Shown here in pieces: positions 1 through 23,100 of a stretch of DNA of 30,460 nucleotides. The DNA is from an uncultured candidatus Brocadiaceae bacterium. Lineage in GTDB: Bacteria > Planctomycetota > UBA1135 > UBA2386. The stretch spans positions 1 to 30,460 of the forward strand of contig CAZSKV010000751.1 of NCBI GenBank assembly GCA_964607495.1, given 5' to 3'. A program made the position numbers and the translations under genes. The first letter of the stretch is position 1; every line of letters begins with the position of its first letter. The notes under the pieces were generated by a model. The model saw nothing but the letters and a program-made list of their open reading frames with translations, did not search any database and was not told the origin of the DNA.

Positions 1-1
1 G

Positions 2-277
2 CGCCGCGTGCAGGTCGAGGTCACGGCAAGCCTGTCGCGCGTCGATCCGGACTCCTACTTCCGGATCAGCATCCGCAATGCGACCGCGTCCCGGCATGAC
101 ACCGTCGTCGAGCAGGCGCCAGGTGGCACCGGAATGGGGACGTGGTCGTTCACGCTCGCGAGCCTTGCCCACGTCGACCGCGACACGCAGATCGAGCTAG
201 AGATCATCGGCGACTGGAGCCCGGGCGCGCGCGCCGAGCTCGCGATCGATGCGGTGCGCGTCACGGCTTCCTACTGA
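2..277 (+). CDS. 3' end of a gene truncated by the window start; hypothetical protein, beta-strand-rich C-terminal domain
   Basis: Frame is open from base 2 to TGA at 275-277. Codon usage is GC3-rich, the sequence is protein-like with alternating hydrophobic residues (YFRISIRN, WSFTL, IELEII, AIDAVRVTASY), and the end overlaps the convergent gene by 7 nt. Confidence 0.65.
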   Translation, partial: RRVQVEVTASLSRVDPDSYFRISIRNATASRHDTVVEQAPGGTGMGTWSFTLASLAHVDRDTQIELEIIGDWSPGARAELAIDAVRVTASY

Positions 278-1299
278 CGCCCGAGCAGCACCTGCGCGTG
301 CGCGATGCCGCCGACCTGCTCGACGACGACCAGGTAGGTCACCCATTCCGGAGCCTCCGCCGCGCAGCGTTGCGCCAGCTCCTGCGCCGCGGAGTCCGAG
401 GCAAAGGTGACGACGCCGTCGACCGCAGGCACGGTCGCGGACACCGAACCGAAGGGCGTGAACCAGCGCAGCGCGAACTTCCCTTCGCGATTGCCGACCT
501 CCGCGCGGGGCACCCCCCCCGCCGGGAGCGTGATGCGCCAGGGCTCGGCACCCGGCCTGCTCGTGGGAGCTGCCGCCGGCGCGAGGGGCTCGACCTCCGG
601 GCCGGCGAGGCGGGCCCCGCCATGGCCGAGCGCGCGCAGGGTCTGTTCCTCCACGCCCCCGGGCTCGACGCGGAACACATCGACCGCATCGTGCGCGTGG
701 GGCGGGCGCAACGACCAGAGCAGGTCGCGCTCTTGCGCCTTGGGCAGACGCTCCTTGGTCGCCAGGTAGACGCGCTGCTGCGCGAGGCCGAGCAATGCCT
801 CACGCAGCGCGACCAGGGTCGTGATCTCGCTCGTCGCCGCGAGCGCCTGCCGGCGCTGCACCACGATCGGCAAGGTCACGACCAGGCCGCCGGCCACCAG
901 GCTGACCAGGCCGCGCTCGCGCAGGAGCCGTGCCGCGACGAGCCCGACCACCACCGACCCGGGCACCCAGGCCAGGGTGAGCGCAGGCTCGATCCGGAAC
1001 GCGACGTCGACCCATCCCGCGAGGCAGCTGGCGAGCACGGCGCCGACGACGCAACCAAAACCACCGGCCGCCGCGCGCAGGCGCGCAACGCGCAGGACGA
1101 TCCAGAGCGTCAGGACCCCGGCGAGGCCCCGGCACACGCAGCGGCCGAGCGGCAGGTCGGACCAGGCCGGTTGCGCCAGCGCGGCGGATGGCAAGCCCGG
1201 GGCGAGCAGCCGCGGCCCCTCGGTCAGGGCCATGGTCGCGAGGATCGCGAGTACTGCCATCAGGGCCGCCACCATCGGCTTGTCACCGCCTGGTTTCAT
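271..1299 (-). CDS. Hypothetical membrane protein (342 aa), paralog B; several N-terminal TM helices plus a soluble C-terminal domain
   Basis: Start chosen at ATG 1299 (MKPGGDKP) because it forms an ATGA overlap with the stop of the upstream paralog at 1296. Has hydrophobic helices and is colinear with 1296-2327 (RERGLVS, LGLAQQRVYLAT, SLRPPH, FRVEPGGVEEQ, SRP..WRIT, TPFGSV, GVVTF). Confidence 0.8.
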   Translation of the reverse strand: MKPGGDKPMVAALMAVLAILATMALTEGPRLLAPGLPSAALAQPAWSDLPLGRCVCRGLAGVLTLWIVLRVARLRAAAGGFGCVVGAVLASCLAGWVDVAFRIEPALTLAWVPGSVVVGLVAARLLRERGLVSLVAGGLVVTLPIVVQRRQALAATSEITTLVALREALLGLAQQRVYLATKERLPKAQERDLLWSLRPPHAHDAVDVFRVEPGGVEEQTLRALGHGGARLAGPEVEPLAPAAAPTSRPGAEPWRITLPAGGVPRAEVGNREGKFALRWFTPFGSVSATVPAVDGVVTFASDSAAQELAQRCAAEAPEWVTYLVVVEQVGGIAHAQVLLGRQ

Positions 1300-2327
1300 C
1301 GCCGCACCGCGTGGCTCCAAGCCCCGCCATGTTCCGCCTCGACCAGGATCAGCATCGCGATGCCGCCCCGCTCGTGCCGCGAGTACTCACCCGCGAGCCG
1401 GTGCGCGGTCGAGCCCGGCGTGAAGGCGACTACGCCGGCTTGTGCCCGCACCAGCTCGGCGACCGCACCGAAGGGCGTCACCGCGCGCAGCGTGAACGGC
1501 CCGGCCGCGGCACCGACTTCGACGCGCGGCAGCCCTTGCTCGTCGCGAGTGATCCGCCAGTCGGCCGCGGCCGGCCTCGAGCCGGCCGGCGGCTGCGGTG
1601 CGATCACGGTGATCCGTCCGCGCGCGAGCAGGAGGCCGGGGTAGCCGAGATAGGCCAACCACTGCTCTTCGGCGCTGCCGGGTTCGACCTGGAACAGGTC
1701 GATCGGCGCCGGAACGTGCGGCGGCCGCAGGCTGCGCAGGAACCACACGCCGACCCGCGGGTGCACCAGATCCCGGGTCGCGACGTACAGGCGTGGCTGG
1801 CCGAGCCCGAGTACGGCCGCGCGGGCCTGCGCGAAGGCTCGCCGTGCCGTCGTCGTGCGCAACGCCTCGCTGCCCACCGACACCAACAACAGGCCGAGGA
1901 GCACTGCGCCCAGGACGATGCTCACAATCCCACGCTCACGCACGAGACACGCGGTGCCAACGCCGAGCCCGGCGGCGAGCACACCCCCGAGCGGGAGCTG
2001 GGCGCAGCTCGGGGCGAGGCCGCCGTGCGGGACCATCAGCAGCGTCGCGACCAGCGCGCCGACCACCAGGCCGAACGCGCCGCTCCTCTCCCAGAGCCGC
2101 CGCACGCCACAGATCAGCAGCGCAACCCCGGAGCCGACCAGGAAGCCCGGCAGTGCCCGCTGCAGCAGCGCGCCGGGCGTCGGCAACGAACCCGGCGGAT
2201 AGACCCATGGTTCCGGCGTGAGCATGGCCGGAACCTCGACCCCAACCTGCGTGAGCAGGACCAACCCCAGCGCAATCAGCAACGGGAGTGCTCGCCGAGA
2301 GTTGTGTTCGCTGCGCTCCTCTTGCAT
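1296..2327 (-). CDS. Hypothetical membrane protein (343 aa), paralog A
   Basis: Real C-terminal part of the 1296..3905 ORF, starting [25 protein letters not shown] at ATG 2327. Has hydrophobic segments and motifs colinear with paralog B (RERGIVS, LGLGQPRLYVAT, SLRPPH, FQVEPGSAEEQ, SRP..WRIT, TPFGAV, GVVAF). Confidence 0.8.
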   Translation of the reverse strand: MQEERSEHNSRRALPLLIALGLVLLTQVGVEVPAMLTPEPWVYPPGSLPTPGALLQRALPGFLVGSGVALLICGVRRLWERSGAFGLVVGALVATLLMVPHGGLAPSCAQLPLGGVLAAGLGVGTACLVRERGIVSIVLGAVLLGLLLVSVGSEALRTTTARRAFAQARAAVLGLGQPRLYVATRDLVHPRVGVWFLRSLRPPHVPAPIDLFQVEPGSAEEQWLAYLGYPGLLLARGRITVIAPQPPAGSRPAAADWRITRDEQGLPRVEVGAAAGPFTLRAVTPFGAVAELVRAQAGVVAFTPGSTAHRLAGEYSRHERGGIAMLILVEAEHGGAWSHAVRR

Positions 2328-2377
2328 GGTAAGGCGCGAATGCCGCCGGGATCGTATCGACCACCACCGCGGAACGA
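2251..2377. repeat. 127-bp direct repeat, copy 1
   Basis: Matches 6027-6153 without gaps (offset 3776) with 5 mismatches. The 117-bp core 2261-2377 has 3 mismatches. It contains the back-to-back ATGs at 2327(-) and 2340(+). Confidence 0.97.
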
Positions 2378-2441
2378 AGCGCGGCCGGCGCTGCTGGCGA
2401 GCCAGGTCGAGCTGGTGCTGCGCCTGCCTCCCGAACCGACC

Positions 2442-4124
2442 ATGATCGTCCTGGTGCGGATCGTCCTGGTCGTGTGCCTGGCCGTCGTGGCCTCCCTGCG
2501 GGCGCAGGGCGGGCGCGCACATCGCGTCGACGTCTGTGTCTACGGCGCCAGTTCGGCGGGCGTCATCGCGGCGATCGAGTGTGCGCAGCGTGGGCTGTCG
2601 GTGCTGCTCGTCGACTGCGACCACTGGGTTGGTGGCCTCACGACGTCGGGCCTCGGTGCGACCGACGTCGGCAACCAGGCCGCGATCGGCGGCCGCGCCC
2701 GCGAGTTCTACCGGCGGCTGCGGAGCCACTACGACCGGCCCGAGGCCTGGACCCGCGAACGGCGTGAGGACTTCCACGGACGCGGCCACGAGCCGCGCAG
2801 CGACGCGGCGTGGACGTTCGAACCGAGCGTGGCCTCGGCGACGTTCGCGGCGATGCTTGCCGAGGCGAAGGTGCGGCCGCTGGCGGCGCGGCTCGATCGT
2901 TCTCCCGGCGGCCTGCAGAAGGACGGCGCGCGGCTCACATCGATGCGGCTCGAGGGCGGTGACCTCGTCGCGGCGCGCCTGTTCCTCGACTGCTCGTACG
3001 AGGGCGACCTGCTCGACGCGGCGGGTTGCGCGTTCAGGGTCGGTCGCGAGGCGAACGCGAAGTACGGCGAGACCCTCAACGGCGTGCAGACGCAGAATGC
3101 GACCAAGCACCAGTTCACCGGCGCGGTCGATCCGTACGTCGTACCCGGCGATCCGGCCAGCGGGCTGTTGCCCGGCATCCAGCCGGGCGAACCCGGTGCG
3201 GAGGGCGCCGCGGATGCCCGGATACAGGCGTACTGCTACCGCTTGTGCACGACCGACGATCCCGCCAACCGTGTGCCGTGGACGAAGCCGGACGGTTACG
3301 ACCCACGCGACTACGAGGTGCTGCTGCGCCACTTCGAGGCCGGCAGCACACTGGCGCCGTGGCATCCGACCGTCCTGCCGAACCGGAAGACCGACACCAA
3401 CAACCACGGTGCGTTCTCGACCGACTGGATCGGCGGCAACCACGACTGGCCGACCGCCGACTACGCGACGCGCGAACGGCTGGCCGCGGCGCATCGGCGC
3501 TACCAGCAGGGTCTGTTGTGGACGCTGGCGAACGACAAGCGGGTGCCGGCCAGGGTGCAAGCGGAGTTTCGCCGCTACGGGCTGACGCAGGACGAGTTCC
3601 CGGCGACCGGCGGCTGGCCGCCGCTGCTGTACGTGCGCGAGGGGCGCCGTCTGGTCGGAGCCGCAGTCGTCACCGAACACCACTGCACGGGGCGCGAGGT
3701 GGCGCCCGATCCGGTCGGCATGGGCGCGTACGCGATGGACAGCCACAACGTGCAGCGTTACGCCGATGGGCACGGGCACGTCCGCAACGAAGGCGACGTG
3801 CAAGTGCGGGTGCCGGCACCCTATGGCATCGCCTACGGGGCCCTGGTGCCGCAGCGCGCGCACGCACAGAACCTGCTGGTGCCGGTGTGCTGCAGCGCGA
3901 GTCACATCGCCTACGGCTCGATCCGCATGGAGCCGGTGTTCATGGTGCTCGGGCAGTCGGCTGCGATCGCCGGGGCGTTGGCGCTCGAGCGGGGCCTCGC
4001 GGTGCAGGATGTGCCGTTCGACGAATTGCGCGCGCGCCTGCTCGCGGCGGGGCAGGTGCTGGCATGGCCGGTGGCCAGGGCCGGCGCATCCGGCAAGCAG
4101 GCCCGCGCGGTCAGACCGGGCTGA
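2442..4124 (+). CDS. FAD-dependent oxidoreductase (FAD_oxidored/PF12831-like), probably exported; 560 aa
   Basis: Rossmann motif [65 protein letters not shown]. Signal-peptide-like start [21 protein letters not shown]. An in-frame alternative ATG lies at 2340 inside the repeat. Confidence 0.9.
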
Positions 4125-5838
4125 TCGGTGGCTGCGCCGATGCCGGGTCGATCCAGCGCTGCACCATCTTCCGCAGCCCGTCCAGCGTCACGGGCTTGGT
4201 CAGGAAGTCGTTCATGCCGGCTTCGCGGCAGCGCGCTTCGTCGGTGGCCGCCGCATGGGCCGTGAACGCAATGATCGGAGTGGTGTGCCCGGCTCGGCGG
4301 ATGGTCGCCGCGGTGGCCAGCCCGTCCATCACCGGCATCTGGCAGTCCATGAACACGAGATCGAAGGCGGCGGGGGCGAAGCGGGCAAGCGCCTCGGTGC
4401 CGTCGCTGGCGGTCGTCACCTCGCAGCCGACCTTCTCCAACATCTTCGTCGCCACGCGCCGGTTGACCGCGCTGTCCTCGACCAACAGGATGCGCGGACG
4501 GGCGCTGCACGCCAGAGCCGCCGCGGGCGCAGCGGCCGGCAACGCGGATGCCGCCGCGGCCGCATCGAACTCGACGGAGATGCGGAACAGCGCCCCGGTG
4601 CCCGACGGGGCGGCCGTGCAGCAGATCGTGCCGCCCATCGCGTGGACGATCTCGCGGCTGATCGCGAGACCCAGGCCAGCACCGCCGTGCCGGCGGGCGT
4701 AGCTGTCGTCGCCTTGCACGAACGGCTGGAAGATGCGCTCGCGCTGTTCCTCGGGCACACCGCAGCCCGTGTCCTCGACCTCCAGGACCACCGCGACCTT
4801 GCCGCCCTGGCCGGCGGCCCGCGCGCGCATCGTGATCTGACCGCGCTGCGTGAACTTCAGCGCATTGCCGATCAGGTTCAGCAGCACCTGGCGCAGTCGG
4901 GCGCGATCGCCGAGCACTCGCAGGGTGCCGCCCACGGATTCGCTGCAGAGGTCGATGCCATGCTGACTCGCCTGGATCCGGAACAACGCCATCATGTCGT
5001 GCAGCAACTCGTCGAGGCAGAAGGGTGCAGGCACGAGCCGCAGTTCGCCTGCCTCGATGCGTGCCAGGTCCAGCACGTCCTCGATCAGGGACAGGAGTAC
5101 GTGCCCTGACCAGCCGATCGTGTCCAGCAGTTCACGCTGCACATCGTCGAGCGCCGAGTCCTCGAGCAGCGCCGCGCTGCCGAGGATGCCGTTCAGAGGG
5201 GTCCTGATCTCATGGCTGATGTTGGCCAGGAACCGCGACTTGGCCTCGTTGGCGTTCGCGAGCTTGCGCTGCGACTCTGCGAAGCGGTCGAACACGCGCT
5301 GCCGCTCGAGCTCGCTCGAGATCGCGCTCGCGAGGATCAGCATCAATTCGACCAACGTCGACACCGACTCCGGCGGGATCGGCCTGACGTCGAGGATCGC
5401 GATCAGGCCCAGGGGTTTCCCGGCGCAGTCGAAGGTAGGAGCGCCGATGTAGCTCTCGATCCCCATCTGCACCAGCAGCTCGTCCTGCGGGAACTGCGCC
5501 TGCACGTTCGACGGGTAGCAGCACACCCGCCGGTCCACCACCGTCTCGCATGGCGTACCGCGCAGGTCGTACTCGAGTGCGGGAGCCAGGTGGTCTCCGG
5601 CCCACATCGCCAACGACACCGCCCGCCATTCCTCGGCTCGGAGCCGGCCGATCATCACGTGCCGCACGCCGAGCGCCTGCGCCACGGCGCGCACCATGGT
5701 GTCGAGGTAGTCCTGCCCGGAGCGGAAGACACTCTGGCTCAGGATCTCGGCGAGCGCCCGGAACGGCGATGGCTGGTCGGTTGGCCGGCCGAAGCACGTC
5801 CCAGTGGGCCCTGTCGTGGCGGGAACTGCATGCCGCAT
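4111..5838 (-). CDS. Soluble hybrid sensor histidine kinase: GAF-HisKA-HATPase_c-REC; 575 aa
   Basis: H-box [19 protein letters not shown]-box [15 protein letters not shown]1 DTGCGV, G2 GAGLGLAIS, receiver LLVEDSAVN...[13 protein letters not shown]...FLTKP. N-terminal GAF ([12 protein letters not shown]...[18 protein letters not shown]). No TM helix. Start is uncertain; ATG 5838 is preceded by GGGGAGG. Confidence 0.93.
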
Positions 5839-5878
5839 CCTCCCCGTGATCGGACGGCACGGCGTACCTGCTTGAACC

Positions 5879-6103
5879 TCACGCCATCGGCCCGCGGCGC
5901 TGCGGCTGTGGGTGCGGGCTGCAGGTCGCGCCGGCAACGCACTCCGGGGCGCCAAAGCCACGATTCCACGCCTCGCGCCACGACTCCAAACGCAGCTGGC
6001 GACCTGGCAACAGCATCGCGGCAGGGGTGAGCACGCCCAACCCCAGCGCAATCAGCAACGGGGGTGCTCGCCGAGAGTTGTGTTCGCTGCGCTCCTCTTG
6101 CAT
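5879..6103 (-). pseudogene. 74-codon remnant: duplicated 5' end of paralog A running into unrelated sequence
   Basis: Begins [26 protein letters not shown] (paralog A: [26 protein letters not shown]). Similarity stops at the repeat boundary (6027), and the rest is not protein-like. Confidence 0.7.
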
Positions 6104-6153
6104 GGTTAGGCGCGAATGCCGCCGGGATCGTATCGACCACCGCCGCGGAACGA
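6027..6153. repeat. 127-bp direct repeat, copy 2
   Basis: Matches 2251-2377 with 5 mismatches. It contains ATG 6103(-) and the ATG 6116(+) of the first YfhO-type gene. Confidence 0.97.
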
Positions 6154-8656
6154 GCAGCTGCACGCGCTGCTGCTCGCGGCTCTGTGCGCGCTGCTCTTCC
6201 TCGGCAAGTCCGTGTGGCCCGGCTACGCCCTCGTGCCCTTTCCCCCGGAAGCGCACGAACCGTTGCTGCAGGAAGCGCTCGCGCGCGGCATGCCGCTCGA
6301 GCAGATCCTGGTCGGCAACTCGAGCCTCGGCGACAAGTACAACCAGTCGCTCGCGTGGGACCGCATCCAGCAGGACGCCTTGCGCGCGGGCAGCCTGCGC
6401 CTGTGGTCGCGCGAGCTCGGCGGGGGCGCGCCGTTCGTGCCGCAGATGGGCCAGATCTACCAACCCTGGAACCTGCTGCTGCTCGCGATCCCGGCCGCAG
6501 GCATCTACGGCCTGTGGTTCCTGCTGCACCAGATCGTGTTCGGATGGCTGACTTACCGCTTCTTCCGCCGGATCGGTCTCGCGCACGCGAGCGCCCTGGT
6601 CGGCCTCGTCTGCGCGGTGCTCGGACTCTGGCTGCAGGCGCGCGTGCACCACAACGTGATCGTGTCGGCCGCGTTGCCCTGCTTTGGCATCCTGGCCGCG
6701 GTCCATGCGCTCGTGCAGCATGGCGAACGTGCGCCGGCGGTCGGGCGTCTCGCGCTCGGCCTCGGCATCGCGTGGCTCGGCGGCTTCCCGCCGACCGCCT
6801 TGCAGGAGACGCTGCTGGCACTCGCCTACGCCGGTGTGCTGGCGTGCTCGGCCCCGAAGCCGGAGCGGGGCGCGCGCCTGCTGCGCGTCGCGATCGGGGT
6901 AGGACTCGGCGGCGCGCTCGCGGCCGCGCAGATGGTCCCGGTGCTCCTGGCTGCGGCCGAGTCCTCGCGAACCGCCGCCGACTCGCCTCAGCTCCTCCAC
7001 CTGCTGCACGCACGCGCCCTGCAACCGGCCCACCTGCTGGGCGCGATCTGGCCTGATCTGCTGCACTGGCCGGCCGAGACCTTCTACGGCCGGATCGACG
7101 CCGTGCGCTACGCGTGGGCCGCGCTCGGCCTGACACCGACCGTGATGCAGGCCGAGTTCAACTTCGCCGAGACCGCGTTCGGGATCTCCGTCCCCGGGCT
7201 CGCCTTCGCGCTGCTCGGGCTCGCCGCGCGCCCCCGCCGCGAGGCGCTCTTCTTCGGCGGCGCCTTGCTGCTCGGGATCGGTCTCGCGAGCGCATGGCCC
7301 GGGTTCTCGGGCGCCACGCGGCTCTTGCCCGGCGGGCGCGCGGGTGACCTCAAGCGCTACCTGTTCACGGCCGCGATCGCGCTCGCGGTGCTCGCCGCGC
7401 TCGGATGCGAGCGCTGGCGCGCGCGTGGTCCAGGCCGGCTGGTGCCCGCCCTCGTGGCCGCGGTCCTCGCCGCCTCGGCTGCGTTGCTGACCCTGCATCT
7501 GCGCGATGCCCGCGGCGTGCAGGAGCTGTACGCGCAGTGGCTCGCGCCGCTGCACGGCGCCACGGCCGAGATGTTCCACGCCGGCGTCGCGCAGAGTCCG
7601 AGCGAAGCCGCGGCCAACACCACCCACCTGCGGGCGACCTTCGCGCGCGCGGCGATCAGCGCCGCGCTGACGCTCGGCGTGCTGTTCTGGCGCAGCCGCT
7701 GGAGCCTCGGGATCGGGATCGCGGCGATCGCAATCGAGTTGCTGCACGCCGGGTCCGGAACGCGCATCGCGGTCGACCGGCGGCGGGTCGAGACGCCGCC
7801 GCAGGTGCTGCAGCCGGTCCTCGCCGATCCCGCCGGCGGCCGCTTGCAGCGCCTGTGCGCGCCAGCGGATCAGGGCCGCCGCTCGCCCTACCTGCCGCCG
7901 AACCTCGCGGCCTACTACGGCATCGCCGACCTTGCGGCCTACAACCCGCAGCCCAAGCAGCGGATGGAGCAGCTCTTCCTCGCGCTCGAGCCGGACGAAC
8001 CCGGCAAGGCGAGCGTCGTGTTCGGCGGCGCGGGGGTGAACCTGTTGCGCAAGCCGGCGAGCGCCACGCACCGCCTGCTCGATCTGCTCGCCTGCCGCTG
8101 GCTGCTGACCGGCGGACCCGTGGCCGCGTCCGGGCTCGTCGACCGCACGCCGGCCGGCGCGCCCCCGCCACACCGCCTCTACGAGCGGACCACGGCGATG
8201 CCGCTCGCGACCTTCGTGACCAGGACGCGCGTGGTCCCGGCCGCGACCGAACGCCTGGCCCTGCTCGGGTCTCCCGCCCATGACCCATCCACGACGATCG
8301 TGCTCGAGGACCTGCGCGCGCCGACGCCGCCGCCGCTCGCGTCCGCCGAGGCCGAGGCCGCGATCCTGTGGACCGCGCGCGAGTCCGAGCGCAGCGCCCT
8401 TCGGGTCCGCACCAAGGCCGCCGGCTATCTGCGCCTGGCCGACCCCTACGACGCGGGTTGGGTCGCGACCGTCGACGGCAAGGTCACGCCGGTCCACTGC
8501 GTCGACCACTACCTGCAGGGCGTCTACCTGCGCCCCGGCGAGCACGAGGTCGAGCTGCGTTACGCGGCGTGGTTCGTGCGCGCGCCCCAGCACCTGTCGC
8601 TCGTGGCCCTGCTGGTGTCGCTCTGGCTCGTACGCCGAAAGAGGAGCGATCGATGA
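6116..8656 (+). CDS. YfhO-family (GT-C fold) membrane glycosyltransferase-like protein 1; 846 aa
   Basis: Many TM helices, N-terminal LWSRELGGGAPF..QMGQIYQPWNLLL, and YfhO-type C-terminus GYLRLADPYDAGWVATVDGK..PV..VDHYLQGVYLRPGEHEVELRY plus a terminal TM helix. Confidence 0.85.
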   Translation: MPPGSYRPPPRNEQLHALLLAALCALLFLGKSVWPGYALVPFPPEAHEPLLQEALARGMPLEQILVGNSSLGDKYNQSLAWDRIQQDALRAGSLRLWSRELGGGAPFVPQMGQIYQPWNLLLLAIPAAGIYGLWFLLHQIVFGWLTYRFFRRIGLAHASALVGLVCAVLGLWLQARVHHNVIVSAALPCFGILAAVHALVQHGERAPAVGRLALGLGIAWLGGFPPTALQETLLALAYAGVLACSAPKPERGARLLRVAIGVGLGGALAAAQMVPVLLAAAESSRTAADSPQLLHLLHARALQPAHLLGAIWPDLLHWPAETFYGRIDAVRYAWAALGLTPTVMQAEFNFAETAFGISVPGLAFALLGLAARPRREALFFGGALLLGIGLASAWPGFSGATRLLPGGRAGDLKRYLFTAAIALAVLAALGCERWRARGPGRLVPALVAAVLAASAALLTLHLRDARGVQELYAQWLAPLHGATAEMFHAGVAQSPSEAAANTTHLRATFARAAISAALTLGVLFWRSRWSLGIGIAAIAIELLHAGSGTRIAVDRRRVETPPQVLQPVLADPAGGRLQRLCAPADQGRRSPYLPPNLAAYYGIADLAAYNPQPKQRMEQLFLALEPDEPGKASVVFGGAGVNLLRKPASATHRLLDLLACRWLLTGGPVAASGLVDRTPAGAPPPHRLYERTTAMPLATFVTRTRVVPAATERLALLGSPAHDPSTTIVLEDLRAPTPPPLASAEAEAAILWTARESERSALRVRTKAAGYLRLADPYDAGWVATVDGKVTPVHCVDHYLQGVYLRPGEHEVELRYAAWFVRAPQHLSLVALLVSLWLVRRKRSDR

Positions 8657-11238
8657 GGCACTTGCCGCGGCACTCGCTGCTCTGCCTGCTCGCGCTCGCG
8701 CTCGCGCCGCTGCTGCTCTTCGGCCCCTGCGTGGTCGGCGCGCGCAGCTACGTGCCGTTCGACCTCGCGCAGTGGCCGCCGATCGCGACGCAGCTCCAGC
8801 CCGAGCAGCTCGCGGCGATCACGGCCGGTCAGAACTCCGACGTCAGCGAAGTGCCGTTCACGTTCCTGCCCGAGCTGGTGTTCGCGAACCAGCAGTTGCA
8901 GCAGGGGCGCCTGCCGGAGTGGAACCCGTTCGCGCGCGCCGGCGCCCCCCTGCTCGCGACCTCGGTCGTCGGCCTGCTCTATCCGCCGAACTGGCTGTTC
9001 CTGCTGACGGGCAACCCGCTGCGCGGCCTCGCGTTCGGCGCCTGGTTCGCGCTCGCCGCGGCCGGGCTGCTGACCTTCGGACTCCTGCGCCGCCTCGGCC
9101 ACGTCCCCGCGATCGCGCTCTTCGGTGGCCTCGCGTTCCAGCTCTCGGCGACCCTGAGTGCGAACGCGCACTTCTACCAGCGCCTCAATGCCCTGGTGTG
9201 GCTGCCCGGCATGCTCTGGGCGATCGCGGCGATCGCGCGCGGCAACCACCGTGGCCGCATCGGCCTCGCGCTCGCGACCGGCCTGACCTGGACCGCGGGT
9301 TTCGCCCCCTACGCGGCGCCGGCCACCGGCGTCGCCGGACTCTTCGCGCTGCAGCAGATGCTGCAGACCGCGCGCTGGGACGGGCTCGCCGGCGCCGCGC
9401 GCACGGCGCGCGCGTGCGCGCTGGGGTTCCTGCTCGGCTTCGGCCTCGCGGCCGTGCAGCTGCTGCCGATGTTCGCGTTCTTCCCTGAGTCGAACCGCGA
9501 TCCGCACCCCAGCCTCGACGCGATCGCGAACCAGGCCTTCGATCCCCTCGGTGTGCTCGGCTACCTGCTGCCCGACGTGTTCGGCCACTCGACCGCCACC
9601 CAGGGTCTGCCGTACGAGAAGTCGCCCCTGGTCTGGTGGCTGTTCTCCCGCGCGAGCTGGGTCGACGGCAGACCCTTCACGCCGAACTACAACCTGATCG
9701 AGTACGCGGTGTTCCCCGGCACGCTCGTGCTCGTGCTCGCATGGCTCGGCTGCTGGGTGCGCGGCGCCCGCGACCGGCTCTTCGCCGCCGGCACCTGGCT
9801 GCTGCTGCTCGTGCTCGCGAGCGGTAGCGCGCTCGTGGCGCCGCTCTTCCAGCTGCCCGGCTTCGCGAGCCTGTCGCCGATGCGCTGCGTCGGCCCGGCC
9901 GCCATGCTGGTCGTGCTGCTCGCCGCGCGCGGGCTGGCGCCCGGCCCGCGCCAGCTCGCACCGCAGCTGGTGCGCGGCACCGGCCTGCTGGCCCTCGGCC
10001 TGGGGGCACTCTGCCTGCTGGGCGGGTGGTGGCTCACGCGCGCCGAGCCGCGCGAACTGCTCGCGCGGATCGCCCCGGCGATCGCCGCGCACTACCTGCC
10101 CCGCCTGCCGTCGGCGTCGCCTGCCGAGGTCATGCGCCTGCTCGAACCCTTCGCGGCGGCCGGCCACGAGCGGCTGGTCGGCGGCCTGATCCGTGGCGCC
10201 ATGGGACTCTGGCTGGCCGCGGTCTGGTTGCTGCTCGCCGCCCGCGCCGCCGGCGTGCCGTTGCGGCACAAGCTGCTGCTCGCCTACGCAATCGGCGCGA
10301 CCGTGGCCGAACTGGTCGCCTACGGCGCGCCACTCAACCACGGCCGCATGCTGCACGAACCGCGCGACACGCCCGTGCACGCGTTCCTGCGCGCCGAGCG
10401 CGACGCCAGTCGCGAGCGCGGCGGGGTGACCGTGGCGCGCGCCGGCCAGACGCTCGAGGACGGTGTGCCGCGCGCGGTCCTGCCGCTGCAGCTGCCGCCC
10501 TGCACGCTGGTGCCCGAGGGCATCCGCGACCTCAACATCTACACCTTCGTCGACGGCAAGTCGCATCGCCTCTTCGAGCGCCTCTATGGCGCGGCGCACA
10601 TGGTGCGCACCTACTGGCCGCTGGCACTCCTCGACGACGAGCGGCTCGCGCTGCCGCTCTTCGATCTCTTCGGCCTGCGCTTCCTGCTCGCCACCCAGCC
10701 CTTGCTGCACGCCGGCCGCAAGGTCGGTCCCACCTGGAAGGGGCCCGGCGGCGAGTTCTTTGTCTACGAGCGCCCGCGCGCGCTGCCGCGCGCGTTCGTG
10801 GTCGGCGACTTCAGGGAGCTCCCCGACGAGACGGCGGTCGTCGAGGCCATGGTGCGCAGCGACTTCGCGCCCGACCGCGTGGCCCTGCTGCTGCCTGCCG
10901 ACCAGCGGCGCATCGCCGACCACGCGATCTGGCCGGACGCCGGAAAGCGCAAGGTGCGCTTCACGCTCGACACGAACAACCACATCCACCTGCAGGTCGA
11001 CGCCGGCCCTCCCGGGCTGCTCGTACTCGCCGACGCGTACTTCTCCGGCTGGAGCGCGACGGTGAACGACCTACCGGCACCCGTCGTGCGCGGCAACCTG
11101 TTCTGCCGGCTCGTGCCGATCCCCGAAGACGAGTGCCGCGTGCGCCTGCGCTACGCGACGCCGTGGTTGGGCCCGGGCCTCGGGATCAGCGTGCTGGCGC
11201 TGCTCGCGCTCCTGCTGCTCGGTCGCCGCCGGAGCTGA
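8653..11238 (+). CDS. YfhO-family (GT-C fold) membrane glycosyltransferase-like protein 2; 861 aa
   Basis: ATG 8653 overlaps the previous stop (ATGA), with RBS GAGGAG at 8641. Motifs [16 protein letters not shown]...[10 protein letters not shown] and C-terminal [31 protein letters not shown]......VRLRY plus a TM helix. Confidence 0.85.
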
Positions 11239-11280
11239 GACGGAGTCAGGATCTTCGCTCGCCGAACCGGGACGATTGCC

Positions 11281-11292
11281 TACGATCCCGGC
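11281..11292 (+). promoter_or_regulatory. Candidate sigma70-type -10 element (TACGAT) upstream of the ior operon
   Basis: TANNNT hexamer in the 88-bp intergenic gap, 40 nt before ATG 11327. The same 12-mer TACGATCCCGGC occurs on the minus strand in both repeat copies. Confidence 0.4.
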
Positions 11293-11326
11293 CATCCGTC
11301 CCAAGCCTCCGGCCAGAGCCACTCCC

Positions 11327-11797
11327 ATGCCCCTTGAACTCACGGTGAACGGCAAACTCGTCGCGGTCGACGCCGACCCGTCGACCCCTCTGCTCTGGGT
11401 GTTGCGCGACCATCTGCGCCTGCTCGGCACGAAGTACGGCTGCGGCATGGCCCAGTGCGGCGCCTGCACGGTGCACGTCGACGGCACCGCGGTGCGCGCC
11501 TGTGTCGTGCCGGTGGCCACGCTGGCCGGCAAGCAGATCACGACCATCGAGGGCCTCGAGGGTCGCGCCGCCGCCGCCCTGCGCCAGGCGTGGACCGAGC
11601 TCGACGTCCCGCAGTGCGGCTACTGCCAGACCGGGCAGCTGATGAGCGCGGCCGTGCTGCTGCGCGAGCAGCCGCAGCCCTCCGATGCGGACATCGATGC
11701 CTGCATGGCCGGGAATGCGTGCCGCTGCGCGACCTACGTGCGCATCCGCGCCGCGATCCACCGCGCGGCCGTGGTGGCGAAGGCAGGCAAGCCATGA
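11327..11797 (+). CDS. iorA: (2Fe-2S)-binding small subunit of a molybdenum hydroxylase (IorA/CoxS family); 156 aa
   Basis: [20 protein letters not shown]...RAC and QCGYCQTGQ...NACRCATY cysteine motifs. Start [10 protein letters not shown]. Confidence 0.93.
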
Positions 11798-13950
11798 GCC
11801 ACGACCCGGGCCTGTCGCGCCGCAGCTTCCTGCGCGTGTCCGCCGCCGCCGGCGGCGGCCTGCTGCTCGCGTTCCGCCTGCCAGCCGCCCCGCGCGCGGC
11901 GGCCGCCCCGGCCCCGGCAGCCGATTTCGCGCCGAACGCATTCGTGCGCATCGCCGGCGACGGCCGCGTGACCGTGATCGTCAACAAGTCCGAGATGGGC
12001 CAGGGCATCAGCACCTCGCTGACCATGGTCGTGGCCGAGGAGCTCGACGCCGACTGGAGCCGCGTCGGCTTCGAGTTCGCCCCGGTCGATCCCGTCTACG
12101 CGCATCCGGGCTACGGCATCCAGATGACGGGTGGCAGCACGAGCACGATGGGGATGACCGAGCCGATGCGCCGGGCCGGGGCAACGGCCCGCGCCCTGCT
12201 CGTCGCCGCCGCGGCCCAGGAGTGGAAGGTCCCCGCCGCCGAGTGTCGGACCGAGAACAGCGCCGTCGTGCACGGCCCGAGCGGCAAGCGCGCCGGCTAC
12301 GGCGAGCTCGCGGCGACTGCCGCCACCCTGCCCGTGCCGGCCGAGGTCCCGCTCAAGGATCCGCGGCACTTCCGCCTGATCGGCAAGTCGACGCACCGGC
12401 TCGACACGCCGGCGAAGGTCGCGGGCACCGCCGTGTTCGGGCTCGACGTCCACCTGCCTGGGATGCTGACCGCGGTCGTTGCACACCCACCGACCTTCGG
12501 CGGCGTCGCGAAGTCCTGGGACGACCGCGCGACGCTCCAGGTCCGCGGCGTGAAGGCCGTCGTCGACGTCGGCAGCGGCGTGGCCGTCGTCGCCGAGAGC
12601 TTCTGGGCGGCGAAGCTGGGTCGCGATCGCCTGCAGATCGAGTGGGACCACGGTGCCAACGCCAAGGTGTCGAGCAGCGTCCTGCGCGCGTCCTATGCGC
12701 AGCTCGCGCGCACGCCTGGCAGGATCGCGCGCAAGACCGGGGACGCGGCCGCGGCCGCGCGCGCGGCCGCGCGCACGCTCGACGCCGAGTACGAGCTCCC
12801 CTACCTCGCGCACGCGGCGATGGAGCCCTTGAACTGCACGGTCGACCTGCGCCCCGACGCGTGCGAGATCTGGGCCGGCACCCAGTTCCAGACCGTCGAC
12901 CAGGCGGCCGCCGCCGGCGTGCTCGGCTTGCCGCCCGCCAAGGTGAAGCTGCACACGACCTTCCTCGGCGGCGGCTTCGGCCGGCGCGCGAACCCGGCGT
13001 CGGACTACATCGTCGAGGCCGCGAAGATCGCCAAGGCCGTGCGGGCGCCGCTCAAGCTGGTCTGGACCCGCGAGGACGACATGCGCTCGGGCTACTACCG
13101 CCCGATGTGGCACAGCAGGATCACGGCCGCGCTTGACGCCTCCGGTGCGATCACGGCTTGGACGCACACGATCGTCGGCCAGTCGATCATCGAAGGCACG
13201 CCCTTCGCGTCGTTCCTGATCAAGGACGGCATCGACGGCACCTCGGTCGAGGGCGCCGAGGACCTGCCCTACGCGATCCCGAACCTGCAGGTCGATCTGC
13301 ACACGACCGCGGTCCCGGTCCCCACGCTCTGGTGGCGATCGGTCGGCCACTCGCACACGGCGTTCGTCGTCGAGAGCTTCCTCGACGAGGTCGCGCACGC
13401 GGCGGGCACCGACCCGGTCGCGCTGCGCCGGCAGCTGCTCGCCGGCAAGGAACGCCACCTCGGGGTGCTCGAGCTGGCTGCCGCCCGGTCCGGCTACGGC
13501 AAGCCGCTGCCCGAGGGCCGCGCGCACGGCTTCGCGCTGCACTTCTCGTTCCACACCTACGTCGCGATCGTGCTGGAGGTCTCGCTCGAGAACGGCTGGC
13601 CGCGCGTGCACAAGGCCACCTGTGCGGTCGACTGCGGCCAGACGATCAACCCCGACACGGTCATGGCCCAGCTCGAAGGCGCCGTCGGCTTCGCGCTGAG
13701 TGCGGCGCTCTACAGCGAGATCACGCTGCAGGACGGTCGCGTGCAACAGTCGAACTTCCACGACTACCGGCTGTTGCGCATCCACGAGATGCCTGCGGTC
13801 GAGGTGCACCTGGTGCCGAGCGGCGCTCCGCCGACCGGCGTCGGCGAACCCGGCGTGCCGCCGGTCGCGCCGGCGCTCGGCAACGCGCTGTTCCGGCTCA
13901 CCGGCAAGCGCATCCGCCGCCTGCCGATCCGGCCGGAGGATCTGCGATGA
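11794..13950 (+). CDS. iorB: Molybdopterin-binding subunit, isoquinoline 1-oxidoreductase beta (IorB)-like, with Tat signal; 718 aa; actual substrate unknown
   Basis: ATGA-coupled to iorA. Twin-arginine signal [58 protein letters not shown]. Confidence 0.93.
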
Positions 13951-14543
13951 TGCGCGCGCTCGCGTTGGCCGCGGCGGCAGCCGCGGCGATGTTGACTTGC
14001 CAGTGCGGCACGGCAGGCGCCGCTCCCGCAGCGTCCGCACACAGTGCCAGCGCCTGGCGCACGGTCTATGCCGTGCTGCAGCACGCGCGCTGCAAGAACT
14101 GCCATCCGGCTGGCCGCGTGCCCTTGCAGGGCGATGACAGCCGCGTGCACGGCCAGAACGTGCAAGGCGGTCCGGACGGGAAGGGGCGCTTCGCGATGCG
14201 CTGCGTGAACTGCCACCTCGAAGCGAATGCGCCCGGACCGAACCAGCCGCCCGGCGCGCCGAACTGGCACCTGCCGGCCGCCGCGACGCCGCTGGTGTTC
14301 GAGGGCAGGAGCCCGGCCGAGCTCGCGCGCCAGCTCGCGGACCCGGAGCAGAACGGCGGGCGCACGATGGCGCAGTTGCTCGAGCACGTGAGCACGGACC
14401 CGCTCGTGCTCTGGGGCTGGAATCCCGGCGAAGGCCGGGCTCCGGTTCCCGTCCCGCACGCCGCGTTCGTGGCGGCGATGCGCGCCTGGATCGAGGGTGG
14501 GTGCAGGATTCCGGACGAGCCCGCGGCCGGCGGTCAGCGATAG
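13947..14543 (+). CDS. Exported di-heme c-type cytochrome, third gene of the ior operon; 198 aa
   Basis: ATGA-coupled to iorB, Ala-rich signal peptide, two CXXCH motifs (CKNCH, CVNCH), C-terminal [11 protein letters not shown]. Confidence 0.85.
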
Positions 14544-16402
14544 GCCGCGAGGTAGCCCTCGAGTTCCGCCTTCGCCGAGAAGTTCTCCCGCACGCGGCCG
14601 TGCCCCCCGGCGCGCAGCCTGGTCACGAGCGCCGAATCCCCGAGCACGCGCGCGATCGCCCGCGCGCCGCTCTCACGGGTCGCGTAGAGCAACCCGCTCT
14701 CGCCGTCGGTGATCACCGCTCTGGCTGCTGCCGTTTCGCGGGCCACCGCGGGGATGCCGAGGGCCAGCGCCTCGAGCAGTGCGTTCGACAAGCCCTCGCG
14801 CTCGCTCGCGTGCAACGAGACGGCAGCCGTCGCGAGGAGCTGCAGCGTCGCCTCGCGCGGCATGGCCCCGGCGTGGCGGGCCCAACTCCGCGCCGCGAAC
14901 CAGGGTGCAGGATCGAGGTTCGGGTCGAGCACGGGTCCGACCAGCACGTAGCGCAGGTCCGGCACCAGTTCCCGGGTCCGATCGACGAGGTGCAGGCACT
15001 CGGGGAAGCCCTTCTCGGCGCGGACTCCGGCGATCTGCACCAGCAGCGCGGGTGCCGGAGCGGGCACGAGTTCGGGCACGACGACGCCGTGCGGGACCAC
15101 GCGGATCCGACCCACAGCTCCGGGGGCGACCGCCTCGAGCCGCTGCCGCTGCGCATCCGTCAACACGGTGATCACGCGCGCACGCGCGATCGTCGCGAGC
15201 ACCGCGTCGCGGCCCGGGCCTGAGCCCTCGAGCTCGTCGAGATCGGTGCCGCGGAACGACAGGACCAGCGGCAGGCCGTGCGCCCCTGCGAGCGCGGCCC
15301 CGAGCGGACCGGCGCGCATGGCCTGGATCGCGTGCACGACGGCGATCCCCGCCGGCAGCTCGGGCGGGACCTGCGGCTGCTCCGCCGCGACCACCGGCGC
15401 GGGCACGTCGCAACCTTCCTGCAGCAGCGCATGGCGCAGCCGGGCCGCGGAGACGCTGTTGCCACGGTTGGCGTCGAGCGCGAAGGGCACCACGAGCTGC
15501 ACGGCCGGACGCCGTGGCGCCTTGCCGAGCGCCATCTCCAGGATCGCATTCGCGAACAGCCGGTCGCCACGGTCGCGCGGGTAGAGGCCGGGCGCGGAGT
15601 TGACCTCGGCGACCTGCACCGAGCCATCCTCGGCTTCGAGCAGATCGACGCTGCCGTGGCCGAGATCGCAGCTCGTGAGCGCCTGATCGGCCAGCGCACG
15701 CAGCGCGGCGTCACAGCGTGCCTCCTCCCAGGGTCCGCCGTAGCGCGGGTTGGTGCGGAACTCGTCGTGGCTCGCGAACAGCCGGTAGGCGCGCGCGTAG
15801 CCGCCGCGCACCAGGGCGATGGTCAGCGAGCACCGGTGGCGCACGTAGTGCTGCACCAGCAGGAGCTCCGCCGGCCGCAGCTGGTGCGCCTGGGTCAGCG
15901 CCGCGCGCAGCGCCGAGGCATCGGCGCACTTCTGCACGCCCATCCCGCCCCAGCCGAAGGGGTGCTTGAGCACGACCGGATAGCCGCCGATGCCCTCGAC
16001 TAGCGCTTCCAGATCCCCCGGCGGCAGTGGCCCGGCACGCAACGCGAACGACGCCGGCACCGGCAGGCCGGCCGCCGCGAACGCGGCGAAGCTCTGCACC
16101 TTGTCCTCGGCCAGCGCGACGCCCCGCGCCGACACCAGCGTCCGGAGGCCCGCGGCATCCAGCGCGCGCAGCGCACTCTCGACGGTCCACAGGTCGTGGC
16201 TGTCGCGGATGTCCGCGCGCGGCAGCACGACCTCGTCGGCGGCGAGGCCGAACACGCCCTTGCCCGGCACCAGGCGCAGCTGCGCGATCTCGACCACCCG
16301 CGCGCGGTACCCGAGCCAGCGCGCACAGGCGAGCAGCAGCTCGTTGCTCTTGGCATCGGCCGCATTGCCGTGCGGCGAGGAGTTGAGGATCGCGAGACGC
16401 AT
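14534..16402 (-). CDS. Fusion: N-terminal RimK/LysX-type ATP-grasp ligase plus C-terminal GT4 (GT-B) glycosyltransferase; 622 aa
   Basis: ATP-grasp: EDKVQSF...[38 protein letters not shown]...[10 protein letters not shown]4: [50 protein letters not shown]. One continuous frame. Start chosen at MRLAILNSS (16402). Confidence 0.85.
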
Positions 16403-16550
16403 GCGGCCTGCGTGCGGATCCAACAGCGCGCCATGGTGCTGCGGCAAGGCCTCGCTGCAGAAGCTGCGCGGCCGTTCGGCGCCAGTCGCGACGCCCTCGC
16501 CGGCGTCCGCTCGCGAGCTGGGTGCAGGCAGCGGGCAGGCACCCTGGGGG

Positions 16551-16578
16551 TTGCACCCTTCCAGAATAGGTCTAAGCT
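16551..16578 (+). promoter_or_regulatory. Putative sigma70-type promoter of the blaI-like operon
   Basis: TTGCAC (16551-56), 16 bp, TAAGCT (16573-78) in an AT-rich island; RBS AAAGGA at about 16610 before ATG 16626. Confidence 0.6.
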
Positions 16579-16596
16579 TAGTCAACTAAGCGTAGA
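16571..16596. promoter_or_regulatory. 26-bp palindromic operator, probable BlaI-family binding site
   Basis: TCTAAGCTTAGT-CA-ACTAAGCGTAGA: 12-bp arms with 11/12 complementarity and a 2-bp spacer. It overlaps the -10 element directly upstream of a BlaI/MecI/CopY repressor gene, a family known to autoregulate through such dyads. Confidence 0.8.
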
Positions 16597-16625: not shown

Positions 16626-17036
16626 ATGCCAGGCAAGGAGCTCCCCGAACCGACCGAGCGCGAACTGCAGATCCTGAAGGTGCTCTGGGACCGCGGCGAA
16701 GCGAGCGTGCACGCGGTCTACCTGGCCCTGCGCGACGATCTCGGCATCGTGCAGAACACCGTGCAGGCGTTCCTGCGCACGATGGAGGCGAAGGGGCTCG
16801 TGACCCACCGCACGGTCGGCAGGACCTTTCTCTACCGGCCGCGGCTCGAACGCGAACATGCCGCGCGGCGCCGGGTCTCGAACGTGCTCGAGCGGGTATT
16901 CGACGGGGCGCTGGACGAGCTCGTCGCCCATGCGCTCTCCGTGCGCTCGCCGAGCGTGGAGGAACTGTCCCGCCTGCGCGCGATGATCGACGAGCTCGAG
17001 ACCGACGCACGCAGCGGCCGGAGGCCACGGCGATGA
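16626..17036 (+). CDS. BlaI/MecI/CopY family transcriptional repressor; 136 aa
   Basis: PTERELQILKVLWDRGEASV...NTVQAFLRTMEAKGLV.....GRTFLYRP...VLERVFDG, followed by a coupled M56 peptidase gene. Confidence 0.93.
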   Translation: MPGKELPEPTERELQILKVLWDRGEASVHAVYLALRDDLGIVQNTVQAFLRTMEAKGLVTHRTVGRTFLYRPRLEREHAARRRVSNVLERVFDGALDELVAHALSVRSPSVEELSRLRAMIDELETDARSGRRPRR

Positions 17037-22163: not shown

Positions 22164-22598
22164 ATGCCGACCCAAGCCCTCCCCGAACGCCAGGCATTGG
22201 TCGCGGTGCTGCTCGCGCTGGCGATGCTGATCGTCGTCGTCGAACTCGTGCGCAAGCGCAAGCTGCGCGAGGAGTACTCGTTCCTGTGGGTCGGGACCGC
22301 GCTCGCACTGCTGGTGCTCGCGGTCTGGAGCGATTCGCTGACCTGGTTCCAGCAGCTGATCGGCGCAGCCGTGCCGACCTCGGCGTTGTTCTTCGGCGGA
22401 CTCGTGTTCCTGATGCTCGTCGCCCTGCAGTTCTCGGTCCGCATCTCCAAGGAGTCGTTCCGGCAGAAGACGATGGCACAGCGCACCGCCCTGCTCGAGC
22501 GCGAGGTCGACGAACTCCGCGCGCGGATCGACGAACTCGAGGCCGAGCGCAAGGGGCGCGCCGCTCCTCCCCGCCGCGAGGCCGGCAGTGCCTCCTGA
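22164..22598 (+). CDS. DUF2304 family membrane protein; 144 aa
   Basis: VVELVRKRKLREEYSFLW, 3 TM helices, FSVRIS...LAQR.ALLE coiled-coil tail. Typical position right after a GT2 gene. Confidence 0.85.
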   Translation: MPTQALPERQALVAVLLALAMLIVVVELVRKRKLREEYSFLWVGTALALLVLAVWSDSLTWFQQLIGAAVPTSALFFGGLVFLMLVALQFSVRISKESFRQKTMAQRTALLEREVDELRARIDELEAERKGRAAPPRREAGSAS

Positions 22599-23100
22599 TT
22601 TCGCGGCCTTGCTCGCCACCGAATTCCGGCGGCGGCTGCTCGGCGAATACGTACCGCGGATCCGCCACTGCGCAGGCCTGCTGAGCGAGAGCCAGGCCTG
22701 GCAGAAGCCGGCACCGGGCGGCAATTCGCTCGGCAACCTGCTGCTGCACCTCGAAGGCAACGTCCGCCAGTGGATCCTCGGCGAGATCGGCGGCGAGATC
22801 GGCGGCGAGATCGACGGGCGCGACCGGGCGGCCGAGTTCGCGGCCGTGGCCGCGACCGCGCCCGCGCCGATCCCGGCACTCCTGCTGCGCCTGGAGACGA
22901 CCGTGAGCCGGGCCTGCACGCTGGTGGACGGCCTGTCCGAAGCGCAACTGCGCACGCGGCAGGTGTTCCAAGGCCGTTACTCCGAGACCTGGTTCTCGGC
23001 GATCGTGCACGTGCTCGAACACTTCTCCGGGCACGCCGGGCAGATCTACTTCTGGACCAAGGCGCTGACCGGCAAGGACCTGAAGTTCTACGACCTATGA
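22588..23100 (+). CDS. DinB/DUF1572-family protein; 170 aa
   Basis: NSLGNLLLHLEGNVRQWI, RDRAAEF, HVLEHFSGHAGQI (DinB His triad). GTG start overlaps the DUF2304 gene end. Confidence 0.85.
   Translation: MPPDFAALLATEFRRRLLGEYVPRIRHCAGLLSESQAWQKPAPGGNSLGNLLLHLEGNVRQWILGEIGGEIGGEIDGRDRAAEFAAVAATAPAPIPALLLRLETTVSRACTLVDGLSEAQLRTRQVFQGRYSETWFSAIVHVLEHFSGHAGQIYFWTKALTGKDLKFYDL
22780..22815 (+). repeat. 3 x 12-bp in-frame tandem repeat (GGCGAGATCGGC x2 + GGCGAGATCGAC) encoding GEIG-GEIG-GEID
   Basis: Read directly from the sequence. Confidence 0.9.

Follow-up and report, generated by a model that had tools for sequence, protein, structure and literature searches.

Two genes between 127-bp copies of a divergent start junction in a Planctomycetota genome: a probable insertion with long target duplication

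Inserts of a few kilobases that carry no mobility genes and are flanked by direct repeats of 46–423 bp, matching a target that is otherwise single copy, have been described as insertions with long target duplication (Furuta et al. 2010, PMC2853133, where the first report, by Nobusato et al. 2000, Gene 259:99, is cited). The published cases carry restriction-modification (RM) systems, and a link to the double-strand breaks made by these systems has been proposed; a gene fusion is occasionally seen at the joint, and the mechanism is unknown (PMC2853133). Tandem duplication followed by recombination has been discussed as an alternative route (PMC3457768). Here we analyze a stretch of 30,460 nucleotides from an uncultured candidatus Brocadiaceae bacterium of the phylum Planctomycetota (contig CAZSKV010000751.1 of assembly GCA_964607495.1, positions 1 to 30,460), which we call the window. 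In it, two divergently oriented genes, paralog A and YfhO-1, are separated by a 3.65-kb insert that lies between two copies of a 127-bp direct repeat. We think, with a probability of about three in four, that the structure is a one-off, ancient insertion with long target duplication, and that its target was a start junction whose head-to-head layout is conserved.

The locus resembles the published insertions in several respects. Its repeat is longer than 30 bp and, like theirs, far exceeds the target duplications of transposons, and its insert is smaller than 20 kb, with no mobility gene anywhere in the window. The uninterrupted single target exists in genomes that lack the insert, here in relatives of about 50% amino acid identity and not in a conspecific. 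Finally, there is a gene fusion at a joint, where the start of YfhO-1, the remnant of a PMT_2 glycosyltransferase gene and a gene for an FAD-dependent oxidoreductase (FADox) form one reading frame. Unlike in the published cases, the cargo is FADox and a hybrid histidine kinase (HK) instead of an RM system, a remnant of the donor's neighboring gene is still visible, and the host is a metagenome-assembled genome (MAG) from the Planctomycetota. In our view RM cargo reflects how the published cases were searched for and not the rearrangement itself. The locus would extend insertion with long target duplication to other cargo and to another phylum, and the non-RM cargo weakens the proposed dependence of such insertions on RM-made breaks.

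Three other kinds of rearrangement invite comparison. Prophages and islands can duplicate the end of a gene when they integrate, as phage 21 and e14 do in icd (about 165 bp) and as islands that target tRNA genes do. They share with our locus a direct repeat of more than 100 bp with few mismatches and an interrupted gene that stays intact. However, their repeats are the attachment (att) sites of a discrete element with its own recombinase, neither of which is present in the window, and they preserve one gene end, not two gene starts. Cis-mobilizable elements (CIMEs), as in the Streptococcus ICESt family, also hold cargo between direct repeats without an integrase of their own. These repeats are att sites shared with a cognate integrative and conjugative element in the species group, whereas we found no cognate element and no use of the site here. 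Descriptions of template switching (fork stalling and template switching, FoSTeS, or microhomology-mediated break-induced replication, MMBIR) and of homology-facilitated illegitimate recombination come mainly from eukaryotes or from experiments on transformation. Both would explain a patchwork from two donors, tight joints free of filler and the renewed copying of the target at re-entry. At our locus the joints are read without the exact parental sequences, so that no microhomology could be verified.

A duplicated head-to-head gene start

The two repeat copies are identical at 122 of 127 positions, contain no gaps, have the same orientation and lie 3776 bp apart. Repeat search, MAFFT alignment and direct counting agree on these figures, which had already been given in a preliminary description of this DNA. 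Each copy contains the beginnings of two genes in opposite directions, CAT (ATG on the minus strand), 12 nt and ATG (plus strand), with divergent starts at 2327/2340 in the left copy and 6103/6116 in the right copy. Genes were called from the phase of third-position GC, in a window of about 72% G+C, and checked with Pfam. Both lines of evidence bear out what the preliminary description had proposed for the outer halves of the two copies: the left one keeps paralog A intact and leftward, and the right one keeps YfhO-1 intact and rightward. The inward halves, as it had also noted, run into FADox (here from 2340, in frame) and into a dead open reading frame (ORF) of 74 codons (here from 6103). 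The resident genes and the repeat copies are the following.

271..1299, minus strand: paralog B, 342 aa, 38% identical to paralog A and directly downstream of it
1296..2327, minus strand: paralog A, a 343-aa membrane protein without a Pfam family, resident to the left of the junction
2251..2377: left repeat copy, with 26 functional codons of paralog A (2251–2327), a spacer of 12 nt and, as a relic, 13 codons of YfhO-1 (2340–2377)
6027..6153: right repeat copy, with relic codons 1–26 of paralog A (6027–6103), a spacer of 12 nt and functional codons 1–13 of YfhO-1 (6116–6153)
6116..8656, plus strand: YfhO-1 (PF09586), 846 aa, resident to the right of the junction
8653..11238, plus strand: YfhO-2, tandem paralogue of YfhO-1

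Although the repeat search lengthens the pair to 146 nt (2251–2396 and 6027–6172, 92% identity), the duplicated unit is 127 nt long, since the additional 19 nt match at 13 positions only and their left-copy part already aligns to the 3' end of a PMT_2 gene. Past either end of the repeat no homology was found in DNA or protein, and local alignment scores of the flanks equal the means of shuffled sequences. A tandem segmental duplication, which consists of whole head-to-tail units with homology throughout, does not have such sharp edges. The repeat is also not a product of chance, because the strongest of the other direct repeats with two copies in the window reach at most 51 nt and about 86% identity. 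The window and the one related contig that spans both junctions (L009) each contain only two copies of the 127-mer. A scan of positions 2000–6400 for sigma-70 promoters and terminators returned no sites and is uninformative for this phylum.

Relatives show what the junction looks like without the insert. Outside the closest relatives, the nearest homologues of YfhO-1 belong to Planctomycetota MAGs and have about 50% identity. In L003–L007 a 345-aa homologue of paralog A (MQDTRSEHNVERRAL..., MQDTRSEHN...) is divergent from YfhO across a gap of 4 nt, and YfhO-2 follows; the junction reads ..GSYGPPSLRDQL.. / ..IRGSYGPPSLRDQL.. When 69 GTDB loci were searched with an iterated profile, this head-to-head pair turned up again in L013, L022, L030, L038 and L054. 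In total, six other Planctomycetota lineages have the uninterrupted junction, five of them with a PMT_2 gene directly downstream of A, at the position that paralog B takes in the window. Neither FADox nor an adjacent HK occurs in the 69 GTDB loci, and there is no duplicated junction among 70 YfhO loci. Hence, the comparison supports an ancestral order in which A (followed by PMT_2 in some lineages) and YfhO-1 diverge and YfhO-2 comes after YfhO-1, and in which the arrangement of the window would be a derived insertion.

The empty site that the preliminary description had reconstructed, paralog A abutting YfhO-1, is therefore a real arrangement, and its claim that FADox and HK were gained in an event that duplicated a divergent junction is supported. 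It had also held that its account would fail if all relatives already carried the cassette. This is half the case: the empty site is found at about 50% amino acid identity, while every close relative found has the cassette.

An insert put together from two or more chromosomal pieces

Between the repeat copies, FADox and HK converge. From left to right the insert contains the following.

2378..2441, plus strand: PMT_2 remnant, which forms the left end of the insert and is what decay has left of the final ~21 codons of a gene for a PMT_2 glycosyltransferase
2442..4124, plus strand: FADox (PF12831), with native start MIVLV...
4111..5838, minus strand: HK, with domains GAF-HisKA-HATPase_c-REC, whose 3' end meets that of FADox in an overlap of 14 nt
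5839..5884: upstream leader of HK, present in both strains with 4/46 differences between them
5879..6103, minus strand: relic ORF of 74 codons, opened by the duplicated start of paralog A, of no family
5885..6021: segment of 137 nt found in the window strain only, ending 5 nt from the right repeat copy

The left edge of the insert reveals where FADox came from. The PMT_2 remnant is 91–92% identical over 34–37 nt to the 3' ends of the PMT_2 genes in L081 and L084, and this alignment puts the left breakpoint at 2377/2378. Its peptide is LASQVELVLRLP in the window and LASQFELVLHLP... / LASQFELVLHLPCWVGPKDESLFVYLPKQP (followed by the stop) in PMT_2 proteins linked to FADox. The PMT_2 gene that relatives have downstream of A was also considered as the source, and we rejected it, since the remnant matches the FADox-linked PMT_2 at 10/12 residues and does not match the A-linked ones. 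The order PMT_2, FADox and a TraB/GumN-like gene is conserved in eight loci (L081–L084, L165–L168), which represent at least five lineages; there the stop of PMT_2 overlaps the start of FADox, and there is no kinase.

Within the remnant, 41 nt have been deleted between (A/G)CCTGCC repeats, which brought the relic YfhO ATG (2340) into frame with FADox. The resulting ORF runs from the left-copy ATG to 4124, and its Pfam domain begins only at residue 64. Homologues of FADox are 548–556 aa long, 82–84% identical and end in ...AWPVPxxxxGK and a stop. The real start is most likely at 2442. The native stop has been lost in the window, where FADox reads eight extra codons on the antisense of the 3' end of HK. 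Two calls in this region, the oxidoreductase of 594 aa and the ORF of 74 codons, were created by the scar, and an annotation should not accept them as a real N-terminus or a real gene without evidence. Past codon 27 the 74-codon ORF is unrelated to A and differs between strains.

The stop of HK, the second piece, lies 10 nt past the last native codon of FADox. Among 1.84 billion representative proteins HK has a single full-length relative (67% identity), and it was found in none of the retrieved loci; JGI contigs contain no close relative, only generic hybrid kinases of 35–47% identity. Neither the leader of HK nor the 137-nt segment has a match by blastn or tblastx, and the segment carries no coding signal. 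It is either filler of the insertion that was deleted in one lineage or a later small insertion.

Neither genes nor ends typical of a mobile element were found. None of the genes in the 30-kb window matches an integrase, transposase, recombinase or phage family in Pfam, which upholds the earlier remark that no integrase or transposase is visible. There is no tRNA gene in the window, and PADLOC reports no defence system beyond weak matches to receiver domains. No terminal inverted repeats pair the ends of the insert. An insertion sequence, composite transposon or miniature inverted-repeat transposable element would have such repeats, a target duplication of less than 15 bp and a transposase; the duplication here is 127 bp long. 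Base composition does not distinguish the insert from its surroundings.

At least two pieces of chromosomal DNA, joined into a patchwork, thus occupy an intergenic gap of 12 nt, and 127 bp of the target are present twice. Paralog A and YfhO-1 each retain an intact start and 5' end, and both new genes point outward into the opposite half of a repeat copy. By duplicating the head-to-head start region the insertion could enter this small gap, and neither neighbor was disabled.

Age, origin and alternative explanations

Five contigs in ENA (L002 and L008–L011, from ERZ27258500, 501, 503 and 512) are 97–98% identical to the window, and the insert is present in 5/5. L009 covers both junctions, L008, L010 and L011 the left one, and L002 the right one. 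One could count these contigs as five strains. We rejected this, because they are only 0.1–0.4% apart, against 2–3% from the window, and must be regarded as one population.

Three differences between the left and the right copy are common to the window and the ENA population (window positions 2258, 2260 and 2287). In the right copy all three are non-synonymous changes to the dead stretch of paralog A (L14P, V23G, L24V). At the one position that was compared with an outgroup, the left copy agrees with it (RRAL). The dead YfhO half of the left copy, in turn, differs between the strains (ACC or GTC at 2365–2367). Hence, the duplication is older than the split of the strains, it has not been homogenized, and it is no artefact of assembly.

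The PMT_2 remnant has 8/64 differences between strains, at or above the neutral level given by fourfold sites (2–8%), and is decaying. Positions 5885–6021 are missing from L002 and L009. In the right copy there is not a single difference between the window and L009 (0/127), where about 7–10 would be expected at the local fourfold rate. This invariance would fit preserved control DNA but is only suggestive, since the next 147 nt of YfhO-1 are nearly invariant too (1/147).

Fourfold divergence between positions 1–10760 of the window and L009 is 2–4% over paralogs B and A, FADox and HK and about 8% over YfhO-1 and YfhO-2, with local peaks near 7400–7800 and 9600–10200. Such uneven divergence suggests mosaic recombination between strains. 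A sliding profile, in which we looked for a recombination switch at the junction, is heterogeneous and has no clear break there. In the ERZ27258512 assembly L008 begins at window position 2383, 6 nt past the 127-nt core, and L002 begins at position 2662. The gap between them of about 280 nt spans the hypervariable PMT_2 remnant and the 5' end of FADox; the break could be due to micro-heterogeneity among strains or to a branch in the assembly graph.

We propose the following history. About 3.65 kb of ordinary chromosomal DNA would have been joined into the junction of A and YfhO-1 in a Planctomycetota lineage. The first piece would have consisted of the last ~60–100 nt of a PMT_2 gene and the FADox gene that is next in the conserved operon, and the second of HK with its leader, fused tail-to-tail to FADox. 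The 127 bp between the two entry points would have been copied to both sides. The joining could have happened in two ways: through repair of a break whose ends were staggered by 127 nt, or through switching of the replication template between two donor loci, with re-entry 127 nt behind the point of exit. Later decay would then account for the three substitutions that the right copy has in its dead stretch of A, the substitutions that vary between strains in the dead YfhO stretch of the left copy, the 41-nt microhomology deletion in the PMT_2 remnant and the 137-nt indel beside the right copy. If this is correct, then the locus is a natural case, cleanly resolved, of gene gain in bacteria without mobile elements: the operon of the donor, the junction that served as target, all three new joints and the later decay can be read.

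Several points weigh against this history. There are only two independent lineages with the insert, the window and the ENA population. No close relative has the empty site, and the nearest genomes without the insert share about 50% amino acid identity in A and YfhO-1. Their match to the target consists of motifs, architecture and short runs of nucleotides (GTTGTGTTCGCT..CTGCATGG). At this distance a base-by-base alignment of the target is impossible, and for that reason microhomology at the junctions is unreadable. The insert looks the same whether it arrived in one event or in several. Our data consist of the window and contigs; the donor DNA from the operon of PMT_2, FADox and GumN may have been either copied or moved, and the 127-mer may exist elsewhere in the genome. 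The role of the repeat as a promoter is inferred from its geometry and from the absence of strain differences in the right copy, beside the near-invariant start of YfhO-1.

What could the duplication have meant for expression? It would have kept the proximal control DNA of A and YfhO-1 in place and lent start signals to the newcomers, in which case the promoters of A and YfhO-1 must lie within each other's coding starts. One could go further and argue that the insertion survived because of its long duplication: the 127 bp would be a minimal bidirectional start and promoter module, and copying it would have kept A and YfhO-1 expressed, wired FADox to the start of YfhO, where the later 41-nt deletion even fused the frames, and wired HK to the promoter on the A side. 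We offer this as a speculation that is more probably wrong than right by a good distance. If it were true, then promoterless chromosomal fragments stitched together by template switching could become expressed genes without the machinery of mobile elements, and insertion with long target duplication would be a general process that is independent of RM systems.

The insertion may also have been assembled in several steps. FADox and HK could have arrived separately, or the junction could have been duplicated in tandem first and the inner part replaced by allelic recombination later (the pathway in PMC3457768). The region would lend itself to this: the insert consists of at least two donor pieces, later indels are evident (the 41-nt deletion and the 137-nt indel), and the synteny around the A–YfhO core differs strongly between the window and L003, with a block of Fer2 and MoCoBD genes also gained next to YfhO-2, which marks the region as prone to rearrangement. 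We nevertheless consider a stepwise origin unlikely, for the following reasons. First, no intermediate has been seen, neither a duplicated junction without an insert nor one with a single cargo gene. Second, the cargo genes lie stop-to-stop without filler. Third, a larger tandem duplication would have left homology past the 127 nt, and there is none.

It is quite improbable that the insert is a non-autonomous integrative element, either CIME-like or a decayed islet, whose repeats are attL and attR of a recombinase encoded elsewhere and which could form a circle of 3776 bp. Direct repeats around a small set of genes without a recombinase are what one would expect of such an element, and the end of L008 6 nt past the core could hint at a graph branch. 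The longest blocks in which the copies agree perfectly measure 43 and 34 nt in the window and reach 79 nt in the ENA strain; they would allow excision mediated by RecA, and excision by homologous recombination is formally possible. However, instead of discrete element ends the insert has edges that fall within the remnant of a gene and within anonymous leader DNA. Nor does the element recur with constant ends in a second context: its left end is the PMT_2 remnant, and relatives of FADox sit in an operon without HK. One cargo gene stems from a conserved operon of housekeeping type, and the other encodes a kinase that is unrelated to it. We found no cognate tyrosine or serine recombinase in the window and no related element that uses the same site, no other occupant and no other duplication at this junction in 70 loci, no match of the 127-nt core in JGI metagenome contigs or IMG/VR, and no tRNA target. 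The copies carry the same fixed differences in both lineages, and all close relatives have the insert.

The same evidence speaks against a further suggestion of the preliminary description, that the genes form a discrete, perhaps trans-mobilized cassette that can still excise. Such a cassette would not be expected to begin inside a PMT_2 remnant, have its genes joined stop-to-stop with the stop of FADox lost, lack terminal inverted repeats, or contain FADox taken from an operon that normally has no HK; and the three left/right differences are shared by both lineages, each of which carries the insert. The structure is now most likely a fixed chromosomal feature and not an active mobile element.

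Even less probable is the reverse order of events, in which A, FADox, HK and YfhO were ancestral neighbors and the tight junction of the relatives arose through deletion between the repeats. Deletion between direct repeats is easy, and the empty arrangement is known only from distant relatives. Yet the head-to-head junction, with the same N-terminal motifs, occurs in six lineages of deeper divergence, the PMT_2 remnant shows that FADox left another operon, which is conserved in at least five lineages, and a 127-bp repeat without a source would have to exist beforehand. An assembly chimera or collapsed repeat, the misassembly that had been named as a possible refutation, can for practical purposes be dismissed: the window does stem from a metagenome-type assembly, but independent assemblies of four other samples (ERZ27258500, 501, 503 and 512) show the same two junctions, and the copies differ at 4–5 positions, when de Bruijn artefacts make no divergent repeats.

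Resident genes and wider neighborhood

Paralogs A and B (271–2327) belong to a fast-evolving family of membrane proteins of about 345 aa that has no Pfam entry. Where the A family is detectable it stands head-to-head with the YfhO pair (L003 8959–9996; junctions of L013, L022, L030, L038 and L054), and its N-terminal motif M-[QA]-x3-4-[SRQA]-E-x-N is conserved (RSEHN in the window and in L003). The order YfhO-1, YfhO-2 is itself conserved across Planctomycetota MAGs. Because a PMT_2 gene, which encodes a GT-C glycosyltransferase, comes next after A in most relatives, the A family is probably part of a conserved envelope-glycosylation cluster. The only other relative of paralog A that is detectable in a set of 5.8 billion proteins is P0002 (50% identity) on the 3.9-kb contig L001 (ERZ27258510). 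It lies downstream of an MBOAT acyltransferase gene and not head-to-head with YfhO; hence, the family also has a second context.

To the right of YfhO-2 the window contains a block of three genes (11276–14543), which encode a Fer2 protein, a molybdopterin-binding protein (MoCoBD_1/2, with a TAT signal) and a small cytochrome-like protein; L002 has the same block. It sits between YfhO-2 and a RimK-glycosyltransferase gene (14534–16585, minus strand). In L003 a gene with the same RimK-glycosyltransferase Pfam architecture comes after YfhO-2, with only a SpoU methylase gene between them. This gene order suggests that the block is another gain specific to the lineage, the second one next to the conserved core.

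Further along the window, a BlaI/MecI-type repressor gene (Penicillinase_R) is followed by one for a BlaR1-like M56 peptidase sensor (16626–18733), and a protein of the serine beta-lactamase family is encoded at 28321–29742. Finally, a DinB_2-family gene (22588–23100) contains a tandem array of a 12-nt unit (GGCGAGATCGGC, about 4–5 units, 22761–22829), which encodes a GEIG repeat.

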